64,000 nucleotides of DNA, from positions 2,144,001 through 2,208,000 of the forward strand of contig CM000152.2 in assembly GCA_000004695.1 (NCBI GenBank), given 5' to 3'. Origin of the DNA: Dictyostelium discoideum (Eukaryota). Below the pieces are notes generated by a model, which was given only the letters and a program-made list of their open reading frames with translations, did not search any database and was not told the DNA's origin. A program made the position numbers and the translations under genes. Position 1 is the stretch's first letter, and each line of letters begins with the position of its first letter. Positions 10,222 to 41,666 of this stretch are shown one piece after another.

Positions 10222-11037
10222 TTATGGTCTTTTGCTGATAGAGTTATGGTTGGATGACAGCTCCCTTGAATAATCGTTAAGTAGGAAGTCTATTTTCTTA
10301 AGCATTATGCTTGAGAGGATTGAGGATTTTTTTAATCTCCATCTGCGCTTGTTCATCTGTATGTTGGGTAGAGTGAAAGTGGTTGATAGGAAGTTGTGAT
10401 CTGATAGAGGTATGTCGTTAATTTTTGGGGGGATTAGGTTCCTTAAGTATAATTGGCTGTAGTTGATTAAGCTATTGTTAAGGTATATTCTGTCTAGTCT
10501 CCTTTCCAAGATTCTTGTGAGGTTATGTATCGTTCTTGAGAAGGTGGGTCTTTTATTTAGTTGGTCCATATCCATTAGGTTATTTGAAATTCTGATGGCT
10601 TCGATTACTGTGGCCATCTCATCTGGGGATTGTGTTGTCAAGTTGCCTTGGTCATCATTTGATGTGTGATTGTCATTGAAGTCTAAACAGTTGAAGTCGC
10701 CTGCTATGATGTCGATGTTTTTATTAGGGTTAGACGTTAGGTTGTGGTATTGGTTGTTGAAGTGTTTGTTTAGTGTTGAAGCTAGTGTTTTTCTTTTATC
10801 AGGTTGGGCCGGGGCGTATATGGCCAAGATTCTCGTTGTGGTATCTTTTATTAGAATGTCTGATATTATTAGTCTACCTTCTATTATGAATATTGGTGAG
10901 AGTTTTATGTTTTGGTTGTTGTGGTTTAGTATTCCTATTCCGTTGCCTCTGTTGGTTGCGCTAATGATGGAGCCAGGAAATAGCTGGTGTGCTTGTGTTG
11001 CGTCGGCGTTGAGTTCATTGACTATGGTTAGTGCCAA
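10222..11037 (-). CDS. Retrotransposon ORF2 fragment: apurinic/apyrimidinic-like endonuclease (EEP) domain, truncated before the reverse transcriptase
   Basis: It carries ILAIYAPAQP ... IIAGDFNCLDFND ... RLDRIYLNNSL ... IPLSDHNFL motifs typical of L1-type EN domains. The ORF terminates at 10222 and no RT motifs follow. Confidence 0.55.
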   Translation of the reverse strand: MALTIVNELNADATQAHQLFPGSIISATNRGNGIGILNHNNQNIKLSPIFIIEGRLIISDILIKDTTTRILAIYAPAQPDKRKTLASTLNKHFNNQYHNLTSNPNKNIDIIAGDFNCLDFNDNHTSNDDQGNLTTQSPDEMATVIEAIRISNNLMDMDQLNKRPTFSRTIHNLTRILERRLDRIYLNNSLINYSQLYLRNLIPPKINDIPLSDHNFLSTTFTLPNIQMNKRRWRLKKSSILSSIMLKKIDFLLNDYSRELSSNHNSISKRP

Positions 11038-11141
11038 TGAGTTTGGGGGGGATTGGGATTTGATAAAGTCTGTTTTGTTTTTGAAGGAGGTGTCAGTGCC
11101 CCAACCTCTGACATTCTATTGGTTGATTTTGATTACTACTA

Positions 11142-12392
11142 TTATGAGATGATATCGATCTCCTCTTGGGAGTCGTATAGCTGCGGTTTGGATGGTGAAG
11201 GGTAGATACTCTCTATGAAGCTCTCAATGATTCCTTTCCTTTCTTTTTTGACAGGTGTCTTATGGGTGGATGGGATGTAAGGGTTGCTTCTGTTTATTGT
11301 TGGTGAGAGTTGGTTGACTTCATTGTTTGAGTGGATTTCCTCGTTCTTGCGTTTATGTGATGGAGGGATGTTTAGTGTCTTCTCTCTGTTTTCCGAGGAT
11401 GAATGGATGTTAGTGCTCGTTTTGTTGGCATTGTCTTTTTGGATGGCGTTGGATGTTGTGGTAGTGGTTGTGGTGGGTTTGACAGATTGAGATTCTGCTG
11501 GGTTTTTGGGGGGAAGAGGTAGAGATGACTTTTTTGCTTGGGCTTTTTTCTCTTGGGTTGATTGTTTATCAGACTGATTGTTTGCTGGGTTGTTTGTTTG
11601 TTGTTGTGGTTTTGGTTGAGAGGATTTGATTGCTATCCTGTTTTGGGTGTTAGGAGGATCTGTCATCTCATCTTCTGATGGTTCCTCCGTGTTGTTTGTC
11701 TCTACTTTCTTGTTTTTCTTTTGGGAGGAGTAGGTTTTGGTGGCCGTTCTGATGGTAAAGTTTGCGATTTCTGTAATGTGTTGGCCAGATTTCATTTGAT
11801 CGCCTATTTGGCATTCTATTAGACCGAATACTATGAGGTGGTCGGTGGAGTATGGAGTATTGTATATTGCATAGGGTATTTCTTCTGCAAAGGCAGTTTT
11901 GATGAGGGCGTCCACTATTCCTGCCTTTTCTCTGGGAATTCTTACTCTTCCTGTGAGGACGTGGAAGTCTCTACTGGAGGTGATGAAGGTTCCCAATTTG
12001 CTTCTATCTCTAATGATATTTAGGAGAGATTGTTCGTTTTTAATCATCAGGTGGATCGTTTTTCTAGTTCCTTTGCCTATGTATATCTTGTCGATTGGGA
12101 TATCGTAGTTTGAGAGTGTTTTTCTCATTTCTTCTAACCCCTTGAGATCCATTTTGGGGAATTCGAGTGTAATTGGGTAGAATCCGTTGTTCTTCTCGTA
12201 GGTTGAGAGCGCAGTCATGTTCAATATGGTCTCGCAGTATTTGGAGATGTCTTTGAGGCCTATTGATAGTTTGGGGTAGGTCTCCTTTATCTCTGCTGTT
12301 TTTGTGGAGAATTCCTTAATGAAGTTCTCCGATGCCTCGTCCATATGGGTGGAGGGTTTGGCCATTTTAGCCGCGTCTGCGTAGGAATTCAT
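11142..12392 (-). CDS. Retrotransposon ORF1 protein (416 aa)
   Basis: Intact ORF with non-host codon usage. Its C-terminal half is basic, Lys/Pro/Thr-rich. It lies immediately 5' of the APE ORF on the same strand. Confidence 0.5.
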   Translation of the reverse strand: MNSYADAAKMAKPSTHMDEASENFIKEFSTKTAEIKETYPKLSIGLKDISKYCETILNMTALSTYEKNNGFYPITLEFPKMDLKGLEEMRKTLSNYDIPIDKIYIGKGTRKTIHLMIKNEQSLLNIIRDRSKLGTFITSSRDFHVLTGRVRIPREKAGIVDALIKTAFAEEIPYAIYNTPYSTDHLIVFGLIECQIGDQMKSGQHITEIANFTIRTATKTYSSQKKNKKVETNNTEEPSEDEMTDPPNTQNRIAIKSSQPKPQQQTNNPANNQSDKQSTQEKKAQAKKSSLPLPPKNPAESQSVKPTTTTTTTSNAIQKDNANKTSTNIHSSSENREKTLNIPPSHKRKNEEIHSNNEVNQLSPTINRSNPYIPSTHKTPVKKERKGIIESFIESIYPSPSKPQLYDSQEEIDIIS

Positions 12393-12611
12393 CTCGATGA
12401 GATTCCTTTGAATCGGCGATTTGGTAAGTTAGATCTGTAGATCGTGGTGGATTGGTGATTTTTTTTTGAAAGATTGTTTAAAATTGACCGAGATTAAGGA
12501 TAGAAAAGGATGAATTACTTTTCACGTGTATCTTGTATCCTCTTGATCGCGGTACGAAAATTCCTAATTTTTTCTTACAATTTCAACCAATTTTAAACTG
12601 TCACCCTAAGT

Positions 12612-12624
12612 GGGATTCGAACCC
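12612..12624 (-). promoter_or_regulatory. External B box (ex-B, TFIIIC-binding B-box copy) downstream of tRNA-Glu
   Basis: On the minus strand it reads AAGGGTTCGAATCCCAC, a near-perfect B-box consensus GGTTCGAATCC. It lies about 30-40 bp 3' of the tRNA with no matching A box or cloverleaf around it. That arrangement is known for Dictyostelium tRNA genes. Confidence 0.45.
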
Positions 12625-12653
12625 TTAATCTAATTTTGGTCGGAATAAAAACC

Positions 12654-12725
12654 CTCCCCATTCGGGAATCGAACCCGAGGTACCAGTGTGAAAGACTAGA
12701 GTGTTACCGACTACACCAATGAGGA
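12654..12725 (-). tRNA. tRNA-Glu (anticodon UUC)
   Basis: The minus strand reads TCCTCAT TG GTGT AGTCGGTAA CAC T CTAGT CTTTCAC ACTGG TACC TCGGG TTCGATT CCCGA ATGGGGA G. It has a 7-bp acceptor stem with one G-U pair, D and anticodon stems, anticodon loop C-U-UUC-A-C, and a T-loop TTCGATT. Confidence 0.8.
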
Positions 12726-13077
12726 ATTGGATGAAATTTCAATTTTTTTAGTAAAAAATATTTATAAAAAAAAAATTTATATGGAAAATAAAATACCATT
12801 AAAACAAAAACCACAAAAAACAACAAAGCCAACAAAAAAATAAACAACAAAAACCAACAACATCCTAAGGCTGTTTAAAAACTAGGCCCTCTATTAACAA
12901 AACCATAAATAAAATGACAACAAGTAGAATCAACAAACAATTGCATTAACCAATTCAAAAAAAAAAAATTCCAAAAATAAAATATTTCAAAATTACAATT
13001 ACAATTTTAAAATATACTAATTTGATAAAATATTTTATTTAAAAATAAAATCTATTAAATTTATGGTTTTAGGAAAA

Positions 13078-14745
13078 TTAATAATGAATGAATGATAATG
13101 CAATACCAATGAAGAACAATGAAATAAAATTAAAAGACTTTAAATAAGAGGAATCACTAGTTGAACCATCAGTAGTACTTGAAGAAGAAACAGTAAATGG
13201 TTGTTTACCAGTAGTTGAACCTCCAGTAGCAGAGCCACCGGTTGTACTTGATTGAGAGGATGATGTAGGGAATGATGTTGTACCAGTACTGGTACCATCA
13301 GCATTACCACAAAAGTTTGGAATATTACATTTGTTACAAGTGACTGATATTTGAGAAGTTGTACCCATAAAACTAATACCACTAATATTAACAAAACTTG
13401 ATGAACAAGATATTGCTGGTGGACCACTCATTAAACCAATGGTATTATTTGTAATGAAAACATTTGAACCTTGAGTATTAACCAAATATCCATCACATTG
13501 AGTACTTGAATTCAATGATGATATAGTAGATGTTTGGATGGTTAAAGTTGAATTAACAATATAAACTAAACCACCACTATTAAAAGCAGAATTTGATTGG
13601 ATAAACTTTGAATTACTAAAATTCAATGGAGTATTAATTGAATAAACTACACCACCACTATTTGATGCATAACTTCCACTAAAACTACAATTATTAATAT
13701 TACTAAGTGTTGGTTGGAATTGTCCAATATTTGATGCATATATTGAGCCACCATTTTTGGAATAACAATAGTTAAATTGACAATTTTGAAAACTAAAATA
13801 ATTACTATCAGTTGTAGTTAATGATGTCAATATACTTCCAGATACTGATGATTCACAATTTGAGAAACCTGTACCATATGATTTAAATGTTGTATCTTGA
13901 ATTTTAAATACACCATATTGAGTTGCAACAGATCCAAAATTACTATATGAAAGAGTAATGAAACTATTAATTGATGATATAAAACTTTGAGCCGATATAT
14001 TGGAAGTTGTTAAACCTTGTAAAGTGATTGTAGTTGCCGATATAGAAATTACTGGGAAACTATTATTAATTCCACTAGATCCTGTGAAATATGAATTTGT
14101 AATTGATATACTAGCTGGATAAGTTTTAGTTACATTTGACCAAACATTAATCAATGACACATTTTGAATATTTGTTGAGAAATTACTAAAATTACAACCC
14201 TCAAATTCAATACTTGCAACTGATAAGTTTACAATTACATTAATGATTGGTGATGTACAATCTTGGAATGTAATATCATAAATTGATACACCAGTTGTAA
14301 TACCATTACCACTACCAACAACAACATTATTAATACTTTCATCTACATTAATCAATGGTAAATTATTTTTATTTCCACCTTTAACAATTACATTGGTTGA
14401 ACCTTGAGTAAATGATGCAATTCCAATGGTTTTACCAAATACTTGAATACTATTATTTGAGAAATCATAAATACCATCAACTAATAAAAATCCAACTTGA
14501 CTTACATCTCCAGAAAGTGTATTTGCATAATTTAATGCATCAGCCATATTATTACATGAAAATGAAATATTACCTCCACATTCTCCACCAACTGGATAAA
14601 TATTAAATTTATTTGAATCAACTATTAAATTTAATAAAGAATTATTGGTATCGTAAATATTATCTTTATTTGATTTTACTTTAATGCAAAAACAAAAATT
14701 AATAAATAAAAATGATATTAAAAGAGTATTTATTAATTTATTCAT
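13078..14745 (-). CDS. Secreted or GPI-anchored cell-surface protein with parallel beta-helix (pectate-lyase-like, PbH1) repeats and a Ser/Thr-rich stalk
   Basis: It has an N-terminal signal peptide (MNKLINTLLISFLFINFCFC). Repeated GGSIYA / GGVVYS / GGLVYIVNS motifs are spaced about 22-25 aa apart and are Asn/Ser/Thr-rich. The C-terminal TTGGSATGGSTTG stalk is followed by a hydrophobic tail (FISLFFIGIALSFIHY), consistent with a GPI signal. Single exon. Confidence 0.55.
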   Translation of the reverse strand: MNKLINTLLISFLFINFCFCIKVKSNKDNIYDTNNSLLNLIVDSNKFNIYPVGGECGGNISFSCNNMADALNYANTLSGDVSQVGFLLVDGIYDFSNNSIQVFGKTIGIASFTQGSTNVIVKGGNKNNLPLINVDESINNVVVGSGNGITTGVSIYDITFQDCTSPIINVIVNLSVASIEFEGCNFSNFSTNIQNVSLINVWSNVTKTYPASISITNSYFTGSSGINNSFPVISISATTITLQGLTTSNISAQSFISSINSFITLSYSNFGSVATQYGVFKIQDTTFKSYGTGFSNCESSVSGSILTSLTTTDSNYFSFQNCQFNYCYSKNGGSIYASNIGQFQPTLSNINNCSFSGSYASNSGGVVYSINTPLNFSNSKFIQSNSAFNSGGLVYIVNSTLTIQTSTISSLNSSTQCDGYLVNTQGSNVFITNNTIGLMSGPPAISCSSSFVNISGISFMGTTSQISVTCNKCNIPNFCGNADGTSTGTTSFPTSSSQSSTTGGSATGGSTTGKQPFTVSSSSTTDGSTSDSSYLKSFNFISLFFIGIALSFIHY

Positions 14746-15312
14746 TTTTATGTTTAGTAAAAAAAAAAAGTAGGGCGCTTATAGAAAAATAAAAAATCAA
14801 AAAAAAAAAAAGTAGGACATTTATAAAAATAAAAAATCAAAAAAATCAAAAAAAAAAAATATCCTGGTTTGAAAGAATGGGTTTAATATTCTTTGGAATA
14901 TTAAATTATACCAATAACTTATTTTCTAAGTAAAAAAAAAAAAAATTTCTGCTCAGAATATCAACACAGAATACGTTAAAAATGTTAATTTTTGGCTTTT
15001 TTAAACATAAAAATTTTAAAACTTATTTTTACCACATTTAGATTTTTTTTTCTTTAAAAATTAGGATAATTGAACTTTTTACATATTACTTTTTTTTAAT
15101 CAATAATTTACAAACCTTTTATTTGCTAAAAAAAATTTTTCTTTTTTTTTTTTTTACTAAAAATTATCTAACACGAAATTATTATAAGATTATTTTTTTT
15201 TTATTTTTTTTTTTTGCGGGTTGAAATTATTTATTTTGAAATTAAAAATAAATTTCAAAAAAACGAGACTTAAGGTTACGTTTTTTCGTTTTTTTTTTTT
15301 TTTTTTAAATTT

Positions 15313-15359
<47 letters not shown>

Positions 15360-15484
15360 AAAATTTTTGGCTATAAAACAATTTTTTTTTTTTTTTTTAT
15401 AATCACAACACTTTCGTTTTAATAAAAATATTTTATTGGTATGTAATTAAACTGTCAAAAAAAAAAAATTAAAAAAAAAAAATA

Positions 15485-15590
15485 TGCGTATAATATTTTA
15501 GATGATGAATATTTTTGATTCGTGTTTCTGATTACACCCTGATTATAAATGAGCCTTTGGCTCTTGGCTGATTTAAAATATTATACGCGT
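15485..15590 (+). ncRNA. Box C/D snoRNA candidate
   Basis: A terminal inverted repeat atgcgtataatatttta (15484-15500) / taaaatattatacgcgt (15572-15589) brackets a C box AUGAUGA (15502-15508) placed 1 nt after the 5' stem, and a D box CUGA (15568-15571) placed immediately before the 3' stem. Internal D'-like CUGA copies sit at 15528-31 and 15539-42, and a C'-like AUGAG at about 15548. The box-to-box length is about 70 nt. It lies in an intergenic region between two minus-strand genes. Confidence 0.45.
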
Positions 15591-15835
15591 ATAAAAAATA
15601 AATAATAATAATATATTTTTTTAAATAACTTACTAATTATTATTTTATTTTTTTAAAAAACAACAGATTTTCCTGAATTCCTTTTATTGTCCCTTGTTCC
15701 TTTTTTATTATTATTGCTATTACTATGAAAATACTAAATAAAGATAATTTTAATTTAATCAAAAAATTCTATTATGTGTTTTTTATTTTTTTATTTTAAC
15801 ATTTAAAAATTTTTTTTTTCTTTTTTATTTTTTTT

Positions 15836-16539
15836 TTAAAAGTTTCTCTTTACCCAATCACCATGTGCTATAATTGTTTCTCTATTACAATCTTCTCTAT
15901 GGTAAATGTAACAATATGTATGGTCATTTTGAGTTTGGTTACCATCAACAACTCCATCCTTGTTGGCATCACCACCATCTTCATTTAAATGTTTCACCTT
16001 AATGATTGATCTTTTATAAATTTCAGGATACTCTTCAATTATATCAGCCTCTTTCAATTTCTCTTCAAATAATTTTTCAATGTCATTTGTGTCGCTCAAT
16101 AAAGTTTCGTCAATAGTTGCCAAATATCCAACAATACCATTACACTGATTATCATTATATAGGTTCATAAGGGTTTCATCAAATTTCTTAATTGAAGGGT
16201 TACTCTCATCTGAATGGTAATGGTCATTATCACTATATAATAAAGATACTGTAGGAAACTCATCAAAAAATAAAATTCCATCCCTAAAATGTGCTTTTTT
16301 AAATTTTAACCCTTTTACAAAATCTTTTGTCCATGGTGCTTGACTTATTATATATTTATTTTAACAATAATAATAATAATAAATTAAAATTATATTGTTA
16401 GTAAGTAATTAATTAACATATATATAAAATTTTATATTGTTAAATAAAAAACCTCTTACCTATTATCATCAGGTCTTAATGTACCATAAACAAAAAAGCT
16501 TGTTATTTTTACAGTTTTAGTAGTTCCTTTTTTTATCAT
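15836..16539 (-). CDS. AIG2/gamma-glutamylcyclotransferase-like (GGACT family) protein, 2 exons: 16539..16460, 16343..15836
   Basis: Exon 1 MIKKGTTKTVKITSFFVYGTLRPDDN| carries the GGCT-family YGTL motif and ends at donor GTAAGA. A 116-nt intron runs 16344-16459 with acceptor ATAAG. Exon 2 is in frame with the 110-aa track ORF and extends it upstream (SQAPWTKDFVKGLKF...). Total 588 nt. Confidence 0.6.
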
Positions 16540-16564
16540 TTTTTTTTTTTGTTTTTTCTTAAAA

Positions 16565-16610
<46 letters not shown>

Positions 16611-16864: not shown

Positions 16865-18796
16865 ATGAAGAGAAAGGAAGATATTGGGAGAGTTCCAATA
16901 AATAATAATGATCCAATACTTTCTCAATCATTATTAATGAATAATAGTAGTATAATGATGAATAGTAGTAGTATAATGATGAATAATAGTAATTTTGCAT
17001 TTAATAATACAATAAATAATAATAATAGTATGATGATGAATAGGACAATTAATTCATTGGCATCAAGTGTAATTATTCCTTCAAATACAGAAAAAAGGGA
17101 TTACCTTTCAGAAATTATAAAGTTTTTAATATGTCATGAAGAAGGTCATTTCAATAATATTGCAGAATCATTTAATATGAGTACAATGTTAAATAAAACT
17201 ATAAATAATAATAATAATAATAATCACAAAAATAGTAACAATAGCGCAGGAAGTACATCAACATCACCAATATTAAATAGTAGTTTATTAAATTTAAATG
17301 TTAGTAATATTGCATTAAACACAACATGTACTACAAATATATCACCAACTTTATCTTCACCAACTACATCGACAACTACATCAACACCATCAACAACTGC
17401 ATCAACAGCTACATCATCATCATCATCATCATTAAAAGGAAAAACCAATAAAATATTCGACTCATTTAGTTTTTCAATTGGTGAAAAGTTATGGTTAATA
17501 CATGTTATCGATTCAATTCATAATAATTTAAATGGTATTGTTGAACCACATGGTGATATATATAAAGTTATTTATAATTTAATTAGATTTATATTAGATA
17601 ATGATACATTTTTAAATAATGGCAGGAAAAATTCAAGTAATACTAATAAAAATGTTGATCAACAACAACAACAACAACAACAACAACAAAATAAAAGAAT
17701 TAAATACAGTAATAGTAATAATCAATTTGAAAGATTACCAGTTACATCTAGTATACAATCAATTCAAGATGTATTAAGTAGAGATAGAAATCAAACATCT
17801 AAATCATCTTTAAAGGATCAAGATAATCAAATTTTAAGAATTTTAATTGGAAAGGTTGGTTCAATTCAATCTAATAATGCAAATACAAGTCACATACTTA
17901 CATTACAAGATTCAACGGGTGAAATTGTTATTGAAATTTGTGAAACTAAATTTTATTTATTGGATACCATTGTATTCATACCATTTTTTAATGTTATTTG
18001 TCCATCAAATTTTAGTAATACTTATGGTAGCAGTGGTAGTGGTGGTGGCAGTGGTAATAGTTTAATAAGTAGAGCATCTATTAACAATAGTATGTTAATG
18101 TCAACATCAATAAGATCATCATTAGGAAATTATAGTATAATATCAGGTATTGGTAATACAAGAATCGATCTATCGAAATTGAATTACCTTGAAATTGAAA
18201 TCATTTATATCATTCATAGATATAGTGATCATTATTATGAACAAATGATCAACTATTTCAAAGAGTCATTAGAGAGACAAAATCAAAAAGTACCATCTTA
18301 TGAACTCTCTTCATCACGTAATCAAAGATTAGAAAATTTCATCATTGATCAATATTCACCATTCACTCCAATTACGAAATTGAATCAATTGGATAATCCT
18401 CAAATTGAATCAATTAATATCTATGGCATCATTTTATCAAAATCTGCAATTTTACATACTAGACCATCAATGAAAGAATCTCAAAAAGATACTATGTTTT
18501 TCGTTAGAATCAAAGATATTGGTGGTATTAGTAGTGGTGGTAGTGGTGGTAGTGGTAGTGGTAATAAAGAAGAATCATCAATGGGTAATTGTGAAATATT
18601 TTTAATATTTTTTGAAGAAAGTTTAAGATGGTTTCATTTATTATCAGTTGGTAGTAAATTTATATTTACAGATGTAATGTGTCAAAATTCATTATCGAAT
18701 TCTGAATCAAAAAAGAATATAATTATAATTAAACCAACAACAAATATTTATAGTATATTGGATGAATCATTCAATCATTTAGAGAAGATCACTTAC

Positions 18797-18856
<60 letters not shown>

Positions 18857-21012
18857 CCAATTAATTGTTCATCAAGAGTTTTAGATTATAATAGTGAAAT
18901 CATTAAAGAATTAAATTACAATTCTTGCTCAACAATCTATGGTAATGGTTCAATCAATTGTATAGTTACAATCACTGAGGAGATGAATACGAAATTGGGA
19001 ACTATTGGAATCGATGCAAATAAGGGTAAATTATTCATTTCACATTATCGTTCTCATTTATTCCATGGTAGAGGTTTAAGAGTTGGTACAAAGATTGCAT
19101 TATTCGATGTTCATCCAATCTATAACCCCAATGGTAATGGTAAATTAATTGGTTTAGGAATGTGTACTTCAAGTAGTTTTAAATTTTTAAAATTTGATAC
19201 AACTTCTTTATTAACTCATATTCCATTCTCAAAAGATACTTTAATTGATACATCATCTATAAATAATAATAATAATAATAATAATAATAGTAATAATAAT
19301 AATAATAATAAAAATAATAATAGTAATAATAATTATATTAATGGAGAACAACCTTCATTTAGTGAACTTTGGAGAAAATATTCAATTGTAAATTCATATA
19401 TTTTATCAATTTTACTATTAAAACTTGAAAGAAAATTTCCAAACGTTTTTCAATCATTTGAATCATTTAAATTTAATTTCTCTGGTAAACCACTTTATGA
19501 ACATATAGCAAAATTATTTAATATTCCAAAAATGATTGATGATGGTTTTAGTGGTTATGATAATATTTTATGTCATAATATTAAATGTTCATTAAATTAT
19601 AATAATAATAATAATAATAGTGATAACAAGGGATTAAACTCAACACCAATTTTACCGACATTAATAAAACTATCACAATTATCAAATTTAAAATCAGATA
19701 GATACTCAAGTAAATTTGATTACTCTAAAAAGTATTCATTAATTGGTCAATTGGAATTAAGTCCACAAGGTTTTGAATGGGGTAAAATTTCATTAACAGA
19801 CTCAAATTCAACAGTGGATTGTTTTATTACAGATGTAAATGAATATCATTTAAATAAAATTTGGAAAATTAATAGTTTTCAAGTGAACTTTGAAGAATAT
19901 CAAGAAACATCACAAGATAAAATTAAAACTATAAATTATTTACAATTTTCAATGAAAGATTGTGAATTATTATCACCAATAATTAATAATTTTAATAATT
20001 CAAATTTACCATTTCAAAATTTATTTAATCAATCTCAAATTAATATAATTCAATATTTTAAAAATAATAATAATAATAGTAATAATAATGCAACAACTCA
20101 ACAAACCATATCTACAACTACACATAACATATTTATATTATTGTTAGAGAAAATCGTTGAGTTAGGATTAATTACTTTAAATGCAATACTATTAATACCA
20201 TCATTACCAAAGATTAGTATTCATACTACTTCATCTTTAAAAGTTAATTTCCCAATTTTACAAGTTGGTCATTGTTATTATCTTAGTGGTGTATCATTTA
20301 AACCTTCAACAAATGATAATAGTAATAATAACAGCAATGAAAATGATACTCCAATATGTTCATCTTCTTTATCTAAACCGATTAAAGATTATGATTTTAT
20401 TTTAACAACAAATTGTATGTATTGATTATTATTATTATTTATTATTTATTATTTATTATTTTTTTGAAAACAAATTTACTAATTAATAATTTCATTAAAG
20501 CAATTTTAAAAAGTATTGCATTAGTTCATTATGTTGAAGAGAATAAATTAATTTTATTCCCAACAGTTTTGAAAGCTAAAACAGTTAATCATTTAGGTAT
20601 ACCATTAGTAACAATAAGTGATAAAAGCTATTTTAAGAATATTTCAAAGATTGATACCACTGGTAAATTCATTCAAACCAAATCTATCGAGCAAATTCAT
20701 CAAGGTCAAGGTGTTGATCAATGCGATTTCGTTTCATTTAGAGGTTTAATAGTTTCAAAAAGAATTGAAAAATTACAAAATACAATTATATTATCTTCAA
20801 CATTACCAAAAGATAAAACAACCACAACAACCACCACCACCACACCAAATGTTAAAATTAATGAAACTATAGTTTTACATTTAACATGTACTGATCCGAA
20901 TAGTCCTGGTAAACATTTAATTCCAATTTCAATTGAAAACTTTTATTGTGGTTTAACAGTTGGCTCTGTTATTGACTTTTATTTTTTACAATGTAAATCA
21001 GTTTGGTCTTTA

Positions 21013-40259: not shown

Positions 40260-41666
40260 CAATTTTCATCAATTTCATCAGATTCTGGAAGTGTTCCAAT
40301 AACTAATGGAATTGGTAATAGTGGTTCTTTAAAAAAAAGTTCAAGTAGTAGTAGTGGTTTAAATAATAGTTTGGGTATTCCATCACTACAACATCAACAA
40401 TCAATAATGTCACCTTCAATTTTATCTGTAAATAATAATAATAAAAATAATAATAATAATAATCAATCACCAAAAGTTTTAAATAGGTTATCGATTATAC
40501 ATTCACATCCAACAAATAGACCACATAAATGTTTTTATCGTAGTATTATAAAATTCCCATGTAAAGATGATGAACAAATTGAAGTTGATTTAATTAGATC
40601 ATTTCCAGAGACAGAAAGTGAATTGGTTGAAATTTATACAGGACAATTAAGGAATGTATTGAAAGCAATTTCTCTATTTGATCCAGAGATTGGATATTGT
40701 CAAGGTATGTCATTCGTTGCAGCTTTGATTATACCTTATCTCTCAGAGGAGGAAGCGTTTCATATATTGGTTCGACTTTTTAATGGTGTAATGAGAGATT
40801 TCTATGGTGTTGGTATGAAGGCTTTACAATTAAGAGTATTTCAATTGAAAAAGTTTGTAGAATTATTATTTCCAAAACTTCATGCTCATTTGAATGAAAT
40901 TGAATTGGATATTTCAATATTTACATCACCATGGTTCCTAACGGTGTTTGCTTATCACTTCTCTGATGAGGTGGCAACTAGAATATTGGATGTTATCTTT
41001 TTACAAGGTTTAGAAGCATTCTTTAGTGTGGCATTGGCAATCTTTCAAATCATTGAAGCTGACCTAATGGAATGTTCAGAAAACTCTCAAGCAATGGCTT
41101 ACTTTAGAAATAATACCAAAACAAAGATTGATGTTGACACTTTAATGACAACCGCTTTTAAAATCAGAGTTAGTCAAACTCAATTGGCAAACTTTAAACA
41201 ACAATTCGATTCAGGTTTTAAACCATCGGTTATAACAGTTTTTAATCCTGATGAACTACCTGAAAAGAAAATTAAAGATCCAAGATGGACCGTTAAAAAG
41301 TATAAATTAAAAGAAAGAATTTCAAATTTAGAAGATGATTTAGCTCTATCAAAACAAGAATTACATTATACAAAAGATAAACATGAAGAGGAAAAGAATC
41401 AAACAATTAACCATCTTAGAGATGTTGCTGATCGTGAATTGTCTCAACAAGAACATACTCGTTTTTTAGAATCAAAATATATTCAAATGGAAAAAGATTA
41501 TCAAAATCAAAAACAACAATTGGCTCAATATGCAAATATAAATTTAAATTTAACACAACAAAATAATTCTCTAAAATCTGAATTAGAAAGTATAATATGG
41601 CAAAATAATCCAAAGAAATCAATTAAATTCATTAAAGATGATATTACTTTAAATCAAAAAAAATAA
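37977..41666 (+). CDS. TBC-domain Rab GTPase-activating protein
   Basis: The C-terminal third has both catalytic fingers of TBC RabGAPs: IxxDxxR (IEVDLIRSFP) and YxQ (GYCQGMSFVAALII), plus the flanking conserved helices (RPILTKHVHQGIPEKYRPQIWY ... FTSPWFLTVFA). The N-terminal 800 aa are N/S-rich low complexity, and a coiled-coil tail follows. Single long exon. Confidence 0.8.

Follow-up and report, generated by a model that had tools for sequence, protein, structure and literature searches.

When a long inverted repeat in AT-rich DNA brackets the two motifs of a box C/D small nucleolar RNA (snoRNA), does it mark a gene, for which RNA, and how would that RNA be released from its precursor? The question is posed by a locus near position 15,500 of a 64,000-nucleotide (64-kb) stretch of Dictyostelium discoideum DNA, here called the window, where a first-pass annotation made from the letters alone had proposed a box C/D snoRNA gene, unannotated, in an intergenic region. 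Here we report that the call of a box C/D snoRNA was right and that the gene is not new: positions 15499-15574 (+ strand) are almost certainly CD24, in print since 2022 (Table S5, PMC8817022), and a functional ortholog of U18/SNORD18. The candidate was recognized from raw sequence alone, and the snoRNA catalogue gains nothing from it, since CD24 had already been published. New relative to that publication (PMC8817022) are a 21-pair stem flanking the gene, a hairpin in one of its spacers, orthologs in other species and a set of intron-like signals.

Identity of the locus and its conserved core

Diesend et al. (2022, Sci Rep 12:1952; PMC8817022) added 30 box C/D snoRNAs to the 17 known in D. discoideum. 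Their Table S5 places CD24 at chr3:2159499-2159574(+), with a length of 76 nucleotides (nt), 34.21 % GC and 26S-Am844 as predicted target, and lists it with box C AUGAUGA, box D CUGA and a gap of 59 nt between the two. Their Fig. S6 draws its guide as 5'-UUUGAUUCGUGUUU followed by CUGA-3' against 26S 3'-GAACUAGGCACAAA-5'. The 76-nt segment of the window at 15499-15574 contains 26 G or C (34.21 %), the published coordinates minus those of the window give exactly 2,144,000, and the 18-nt string of guide plus D' box is found exactly at 15514-15531. Because box C, box D, gap, length, GC, strand, offset and the 18-nt string all agree, along with chromosome and target, we take the two to be the same gene.

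The window itself is part of chromosome 3 of D. discoideum AX4. An open reading frame (ORF) of 555 amino acids at 13078-14745(-) is identical to AX4 DDB_G0279497, and a two-exon gene at 15836-16539(-), its splicing read by eye, is identical to DDB_G0279499, which encodes a GGACT-family protein.

CD24 is absent from Rfam, and it was for this reason that the identification came by way of the literature. At gathering thresholds, an Rfam search of the whole window matched only a tRNA and no snoRNA family. A permissive search (cmscan) of the 321-nt region around the candidate, retaining hits at E ≤ 10, returned eight, of which seven were C/D snoRNA families on the + strand; the six stronger hits all belong to such families and cover the gene from box C to box D, the three best being DdR12 (31.7 bits), TtnuCD15 (31.1) and SNORD18 (29.2). 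All of them fall below their gathering scores.

In the published work CD24 is supported by RNA-seq, with more than 100 reads, a distinct 5' end and an expression score of 15, and 26S-Am844 was detected as methylated by RiboMeth-seq (PMC8817022). Homologs of this site are Am649 in yeast, Am1313 in human and Am647 in Arabidopsis, each guided by U18 (Table 1, PMC8817022). Some points temper the identification. The evidence for expression and methylation comes from that paper and not from the present analysis; its Table S2 holds no primer-extension oligonucleotide for CD24; and an oligonucleotide labeled "CD24 NB" (ACAGAACTCTAGTCTTTAGCTGT) matches neither the CD24 locus nor any other part of the window, even with three mismatches allowed. 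The legend of the northern blot in Fig. S8 names CD21, not CD24 (PMC8817022), and the "CD24 NB" label is probably a naming slip. Since there is no primer-extension oligonucleotide for CD24 and the northern legend refers to CD21, the direct evidence for CD24 RNA is the RNA-seq.

Syntenic regions, fetched by way of DDB_G0279499 and its protein clusters, were obtained from six further genomes: D. citrinum, D. dimigraforme, D. firmibasis, two D. cf. discoideum and Polysphondylium violaceum. Each contains one CD24 ortholog, on the opposite strand to the GGACT gene and about 250-330 nt past its stop codon. Conservation, given as mean pairwise identity among the six group-4 genomes, is 51-52 % in the flanks beyond the arms of the inverted repeat (5' side 51 %, 3' side 52 %), 73 % in the 5' arm, 82.5 % in the 3' arm, 97.5 % from box C through box C', 80 % in the spacer between C' and D, and 100 % in box D. 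MAFFT misaligned two features discussed below, the hairpin of P. violaceum and the donor site of D. firmibasis, and both were read by eye. Within the species, another D. discoideum strain is represented by Logan contigs that align to 15339-16588 with 98.7-98.9 % identity to the window, CD24 and both arms being identical. At the syntenic site of D. purpureum (about 10977-10990(-) of the fetched region) a 14-nt remnant of box C, ATGATGAATATTTT, stands alone: no guide, D boxes, stem or splice-like signals were found there, and a U18 ortholog was not located. In D. purpureum, it would seem, the CD24 gene has either decayed or moved elsewhere.

Within this conserved core every element of a box C/D snoRNA can be placed. 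Box C (AUGAUGA, 15502-15508, +) is the same as in the CD24 listing, does not vary among the six group-4 genomes and reads CUGAUGA in P. violaceum, while box D (CUGA, 15568-15571, +) is the published box; the 59 nt measured between them replace the roughly 70 nt first estimated. The internal CUGA suggested as a D' box stands at 15528-15531 (+), agrees with Fig. S6 and is invariant in seven species. The C' box had been sought in AUGAG (15549-15553), which is not conserved and overlaps an internal hairpin; we place it instead at UGAUUA (15540-15545, +), because this motif is invariant in all seven genomes, as is GAUUCGUGUUUCUGAUUACACC. In the cmscan alignments UGAUUA also falls opposite the C' region of both SNORD18 and DdR12.

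The antisense guide upstream of D' (UUUGAUUCGUGUUU, 15514-15527, +) is identical to the CD24 guide of Fig. S6 and forms 14 pairs, two of them G-U, with 26S 5'-AAACACGGAUCAAG-3', the segment printed in that figure (PMC8817022). A844 of 26S sits opposite the fifth base upstream of D'. The guide block GAUUCGUGUUUCUGA is unchanged in seven of seven orthologs and was aligned by cmscan to the SNORD18 guide GGUCCGUGUUUCUGA. With boxes C, D, C' and D', flanking complementarity and an antisense guide of at least 10 nt that sets its target opposite the fifth base, the assignment to the box C/D class is borne out. We propose that boxes C and D, once brought together, form the kink-turn on which the methylation small nucleolar ribonucleoprotein (snoRNP) would assemble, and that the 14-nt element upstream of D' pairs with the 26S segment so as to place A844 for 2'-O-methylation. 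The protein partners of a snoRNP built on such a turn are Snu13, Nop56/58 and fibrillarin.

Guides had been expected upstream of both D boxes. On the D' side the proposed gattcgtgttt proved to be the published 26S-Am844 guide; on the D side the spacer from C' to D holds a hairpin and no guide. This hairpin, GAGCC-UUU-GGCUC (15551-15563, +), is predicted in every fold, 91 % of its cells are paired across the seven genomes, and one D. cf. discoideum genome shows a double change from G-C to A-U. At the corresponding position of the spacer P. violaceum has a different hairpin, GAGG-UUUACU-CCUC. The four bases from hairpin to box D (15564-15567; four or five across genomes) are variable, reading UUGG, GUAU, AUAU, UUAA, AUAG or AGAU, and a guide for conserved ribosomal RNA (rRNA) would not vary so between relatives. 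The candidate D-side guide gcctttggctcttgg, which is self-complementary, variable beside box D in close relatives and has no assigned target, was rejected. CD24 was likewise assigned a target for D' only and none for box D (PMC8817022). In the permissive Rfam alignments the D-side element shows a weak similarity to the TtnuCD15 and snoZ157 guides. The spacer hairpin would be structural, a small conserved fold in place of a guide that perhaps makes the effective C'-D spacer shorter. One half of CD24 would then be structural instead of a guide, a point of modest specialist value.

A long stem outside the mature RNA

The inverted repeat was first described as 17 base pairs (bp) long. It is present, with a perfect core of 15 pairs (15486-15500 with 15574-15588) that, in the RNA of the + strand, extends to 21 (15482-15502 with 15572-15592), 19 of them Watson-Crick and two G-U; a repeat search gave 22-nt arms, 91 % complementary. 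Box C does begin one nucleotide inside the 5' arm, with G15501 intervening. Box D also lies inside the 3' arm, not immediately so, since two U intervene; these bases can pair in turn (G-U, A-U). The + strand folds (RNAfold) at -35.5 kcal/mol (z = -7.6, with none of 200 shuffles as good), compared with -26.7 kcal/mol on the - strand, where the 15-bp core alone forms; the longer stem on the + strand is due to the G-U pairs. Such a difference is what one would expect were pairing important in the RNA of the + strand. Within the window, which has a G+C content of 20-25 %, this is the one perfect 15-bp inverted repeat with at least three G/C and a spacer of 40-120 nt, and none arose in 30 first-order Markov simulations. 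The arm sequence does not recur elsewhere in the 64 kb, even allowing two mismatches.

Most of this stem falls outside the mature RNA. The published ends at 15499 and 15574 leave about three terminal pairs, and the other 17-18 fall in the precursor: the 5' arm (15482-15501, +) is external from 15482 to 15498, and the 3' arm (15572-15592, +) from 15575 to 15592. We suggest that this external stem serves as a precursor element, keeping boxes C and D side by side while the snoRNP assembles, and that it would then be trimmed to about 3 nt from each box. In the published analysis snoScan scored CD24 without a likely terminal stem; its authors mention complementary stretches flanking some stem-less CD RNAs as "data not shown" and speculate on a role in precursors (PMC8817022). 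CD24 is the first concrete, multi-species example of the complementarity mentioned there only in that form.

A flanking stem of 12-22 bp is predicted in six of six group-4 genomes (z = -3.2 in D. citrinum). Pairs have changed from G-C to A-U by double substitution twice in D. firmibasis and once in D. dimigraforme, G-C is replaced by G-U in D. citrinum, and a 3-nt deletion in one D. cf. discoideum genome leaves a bulge. Two observations count against the stem. Covariation does not rise above column shuffles, with five double-change pairs against 3.9 expected and 151 of 500 shuffles as high, and no significant stem forms in P. violaceum (z = -0.18), so that the snoRNA can do without it. The stem is thus an addition specific to one lineage, more conserved than its surroundings and not proven by covariation.

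Could the hairpin have some other origin or function? C-box and D-box pairs occur elsewhere in the window, three on the + strand and one on the - strand, as they might if motifs and repeat were products of chance in AT-rich DNA; the fold at z = -7.6, the 30 empty simulations, the conservation across species and the fact that a published, expressed RNA is matched exactly leave no room for that explanation. The first-pass annotation had also allowed for a miniature inverted-repeat transposable element (MITE), that is, a MITE-like or foldback element with incidental C/D-like motifs, and arms of 21 pairs exceed what is usual for the terminal stem of a snoRNA, with A/T-rich flanks compatible with a TA-type target duplication. 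A mobile element of this kind is nonetheless extremely improbable. The arm is found once in the window, and each related locus has one copy, syntenic each time, across seven dictyostelid genomes; the interior, not the arms, is the most conserved part (97.5 %) and holds the published functional guide; in P. violaceum the arms are missing and the interior is present; and in place of the presence/absence polymorphism of a whole element, the interior is present in all six further syntenic loci. A third proposal keeps the gene and changes the purpose of the stem, which would expose the precursor to cleavage by the nucleolar RNase III DrnB, either to start processing of the ends or to yield snoRNA-derived small RNAs. 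A duplex of about 21 bp does flank CD24, and RNase III processing of snoRNA precursors has been raised and a drnB knockout tested (PMC8817022). In that knockout, however, methylation was essentially unchanged, and the sole affected site was Am1463, not Am844 (PMC8817022); we regard a DrnB substrate as very unlikely.

A putative intron and its surroundings

From what precursor is CD24 released? Beyond the arms, in flanks about 50 % identical, two islands are fully conserved among the group-4 genomes, GGTATGT upstream and TTACTAATTATTA downstream. The upstream block GGTATGTAA lies 51-63 nt before box C and TTACTAATTATTA 60-75 nt after box D, both identical in the six genomes; TTACTAATTATTA is followed by a T-rich tract and, 25-40 nt later, by AG. 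In P. violaceum, whose flanks are unalignable, GTGTGT stands 89 nt upstream, TACTAAT 53 nt downstream and CAG 29 nt further on. The order GTATGT, then TACTAAT, a T-rich tract and AG is consequently the same in seven of seven loci, with GTGTGT as the P. violaceum variant, and it is the order of donor, branch-point consensus, T-rich tract and acceptor in a spliceosomal intron. Among the branch-point hexamers of D. discoideum introns ACTAAT is the most frequent, and poly-T in these introns has its peak 15-40 nt from the acceptor (PMC2483917).

Read in this way, the signals in the window would delimit a spliceosomal intron of 228 nt (15439-15666, +) with CD24 inside it. Its putative donor is GTATGT, preceded by G (15439-15444, +), its branch-point-like element is TTACTAAT (15630-15637, +), with the ACTAAT hexamer at 15632-15637, and a T-rich tract precedes the acceptor CAG that ends at 15666 (AG 15665-15666). 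Upstream, a putative RNA polymerase II promoter conserved in group 4 (15372-15398, +) consists of TATAAAA (15372-15378) and a 17-nt oligo-dT (15382-15398), a layout typical of Dictyostelium promoters. Between the oligo-dT and the donor there is space for a putative non-coding first exon of about 39 nt without ATG (15400-15438, +; start approximate). The putative second exon (15667-15760, +; 3' end approximate) would include the conserved 19-nt block ATGAAAAYAYTAAATAAAG (15725-15743), which contains AATAAA (15737-15742) and is identical in the six group-4 genomes bar two Y positions; past it the sequence diverges, and the short reading frames there are not conserved. The splice-like signals, the TATA and oligo-dT pair and the downstream AATAAA together suggest a host gene. 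In the neighborhood of this promoter, at 15280-15323 (+) and upstream of the TATA box, two further blocks, TTCGTTTTTT and TTTTTTACTTTTTT (15310-15323), are conserved in group 4; the divergent gene DDB_G0279497 shares this region, and the blocks may act in the promoter of either gene.

We give about even weight, for and against, to the view that CD24 sits in the single intron of about 228 nt of a host transcript that is very short and polyadenylated, is driven by the TATA box and apparently does not code for protein, an arrangement kept from P. violaceum to group 4, with the external stem added in the group-4 genomes sampled (D. discoideum and close relatives). The precursor of the snoRNA would then be that intron, transcribed from the TATA/oligo-dT promoter. 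Several results count against it. Logan contigs for the neighboring gene include no spliced transcript, all being genomic, and in them A is replaced by G at 15632, where the putative ACTAAT begins; the genome annotations that we fetched show no gene on the CD24 strand; and CD24 is classed as intergenic in a study that names CD38 as the sole intronic CD RNA (PMC8817022). The first-pass label "intergenic" agrees with that study and may yet be wrong, given the conserved splice-like signals on either side of the gene.

The alternative is the published one, in which CD24 is a free-standing intergenic gene with its own transcription (PMC8817022). Its precursor would be a short primary transcript with trimmed ends, and GGTATGTAA and TTACTAATTATTA would be promoter or initiator and 3'-end-formation elements, or be conserved for other reasons. 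That Diesend et al. classed all CD RNAs but CD38 as intergenic (PMC8817022) speaks for it, as do the lack of an annotated gene on the CD24 strand in the fetched genomes and of any spliced contig. Yet the conserved blocks fit donor, branch-point and acceptor in consensus, order and spacing at seven loci, including that of P. violaceum; it is GTATGT, and not the snoRNA, that the TATA box and oligo-dT precede by about 60 nt; and a conserved AATAAA follows 71 nt past the AG. The DUSE promoter motif (CCC-containing, about 60 nt upstream), which is found at many Dictyostelium non-coding RNA genes, is absent upstream of CD24. A scan of the locus for bacterial-type promoters and terminators was uninformative for a eukaryote. 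On this evidence a free-standing gene is a serious contender that we hold to be somewhat short of probable. If CD24 does lie in such an intron, Amoebozoa would have dedicated non-coding snoRNA host genes, and other "intergenic" Dictyostelium snoRNAs might need re-examination.

Elsewhere in the window, other RUGAUGA...CUGA pairs with a spacing of 45-100 nt occur at 60150 and 60192 (+) and at 40920 on the reverse complement; Table S5 lists no snoRNA at the corresponding chromosome positions (PMC8817022). A gene for tRNA-Glu(UUC) lies at 12653-12726(-), and about 260 nt downstream of it are non-long-terminal-repeat (non-LTR) retroelement ORFs within 10222-12726(-), one of 416 amino acids (11142-12392, -) with no Pfam match and one (10222-11037, -) with an endonuclease/exonuclease/phosphatase domain. 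This layout of tRNA and non-LTR ORFs is reminiscent of the tRNA-gene-targeted TRE elements of Dictyostelium. On the other side of CD24, an ORF of 1186 amino acids (16865-20425, +) with runs of Asn, Ser and Gln has a weak Pfam match to CTC1, a subunit of the telomere CST complex, at 19.9 bits against a cut-off of 27.8, and may encode a divergent CTC1-like protein or be noise.

CD24 among known snoRNAs

In its published listing CD24 is intergenic and lacks a likely terminal stem, and the 21-pair flanking stem described here is neither shown nor discussed (PMC8817022). Its closest functional counterpart is U18/SNORD18 (RF00093; yeast U18, human U18A-C and AtU18), which shares with CD24 a D' guide that ends in GUGUUU directly before CUGA and is directed against the conserved large-subunit rRNA sequence GAAACACGG, with the homologous adenosine methylated (A649 in yeast, A1313 in human). 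The match extends little beyond the guide. CD24 scores 29.2 bits against the SNORD18 model (E = 0.0012 in the 321-nt search), below the gathering score of 41, and is accordingly not a member of that Rfam family; its guide reads GAUU where that of U18 reads GGUC, fitting the Dictyostelium 26S variant GGAUC, and the remaining sequence is unrelated.

The best Rfam match by bit score is DdR12 (RF01562), which is the same RNA as CD12, the CD12 primer (Table S2, PMC8817022) matching the Rfam consensus. Over window 15502-15549, CD12 and CD24 have in common box C, the string GUGUUUC and a near-identical 20-nt block from D' to C', UGAUUACAYCCUGAUUAUAA, and both target the same rRNA helix, CD12 at A841, 3 nt from A844. 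Three extra bases, AGA, turn the D' box of CD12 into AUGA and move methylation by 3 nt to A841. CD12 differs as well in its D-side half and its location, on chromosome 5, and CD24, at 31.7 bits, falls short of the DdR12 gathering score of 70 and is not a member. Judging from this pattern of shared and unshared sequence, the two are probably paralogs, their targets offset by a 3-nt indel.

U18 is reportedly a classic intron-encoded snoRNA, and its position in introns elsewhere parallels the intron reading of CD24. The hosts would be of different kinds, a ribosomal-protein or translation-factor gene for U18 and a tiny non-coding transcript for CD24. The possibility is thereby raised that at least one "intergenic" Dictyostelium snoRNA is processed from the intron of a mini-host, as U18 is in yeast and vertebrates.

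A parallel for the external stem comes from vertebrates, where intronic box C/D snoRNAs that have no terminal stem use external complementary intron sequence (Darzacq & Kiss 2000, via PMC8817022). Mature CD24, with three terminal pairs at most, is similar to these RNAs, and its outer complementary stretches could likewise juxtapose the boxes and then be removed. It differs from them in that its stem is long, at 21 pairs, and lineage-restricted, present in the six group-4 genomes and absent from P. violaceum, and in that the role of the stem in Dictyostelium is a predicted one.

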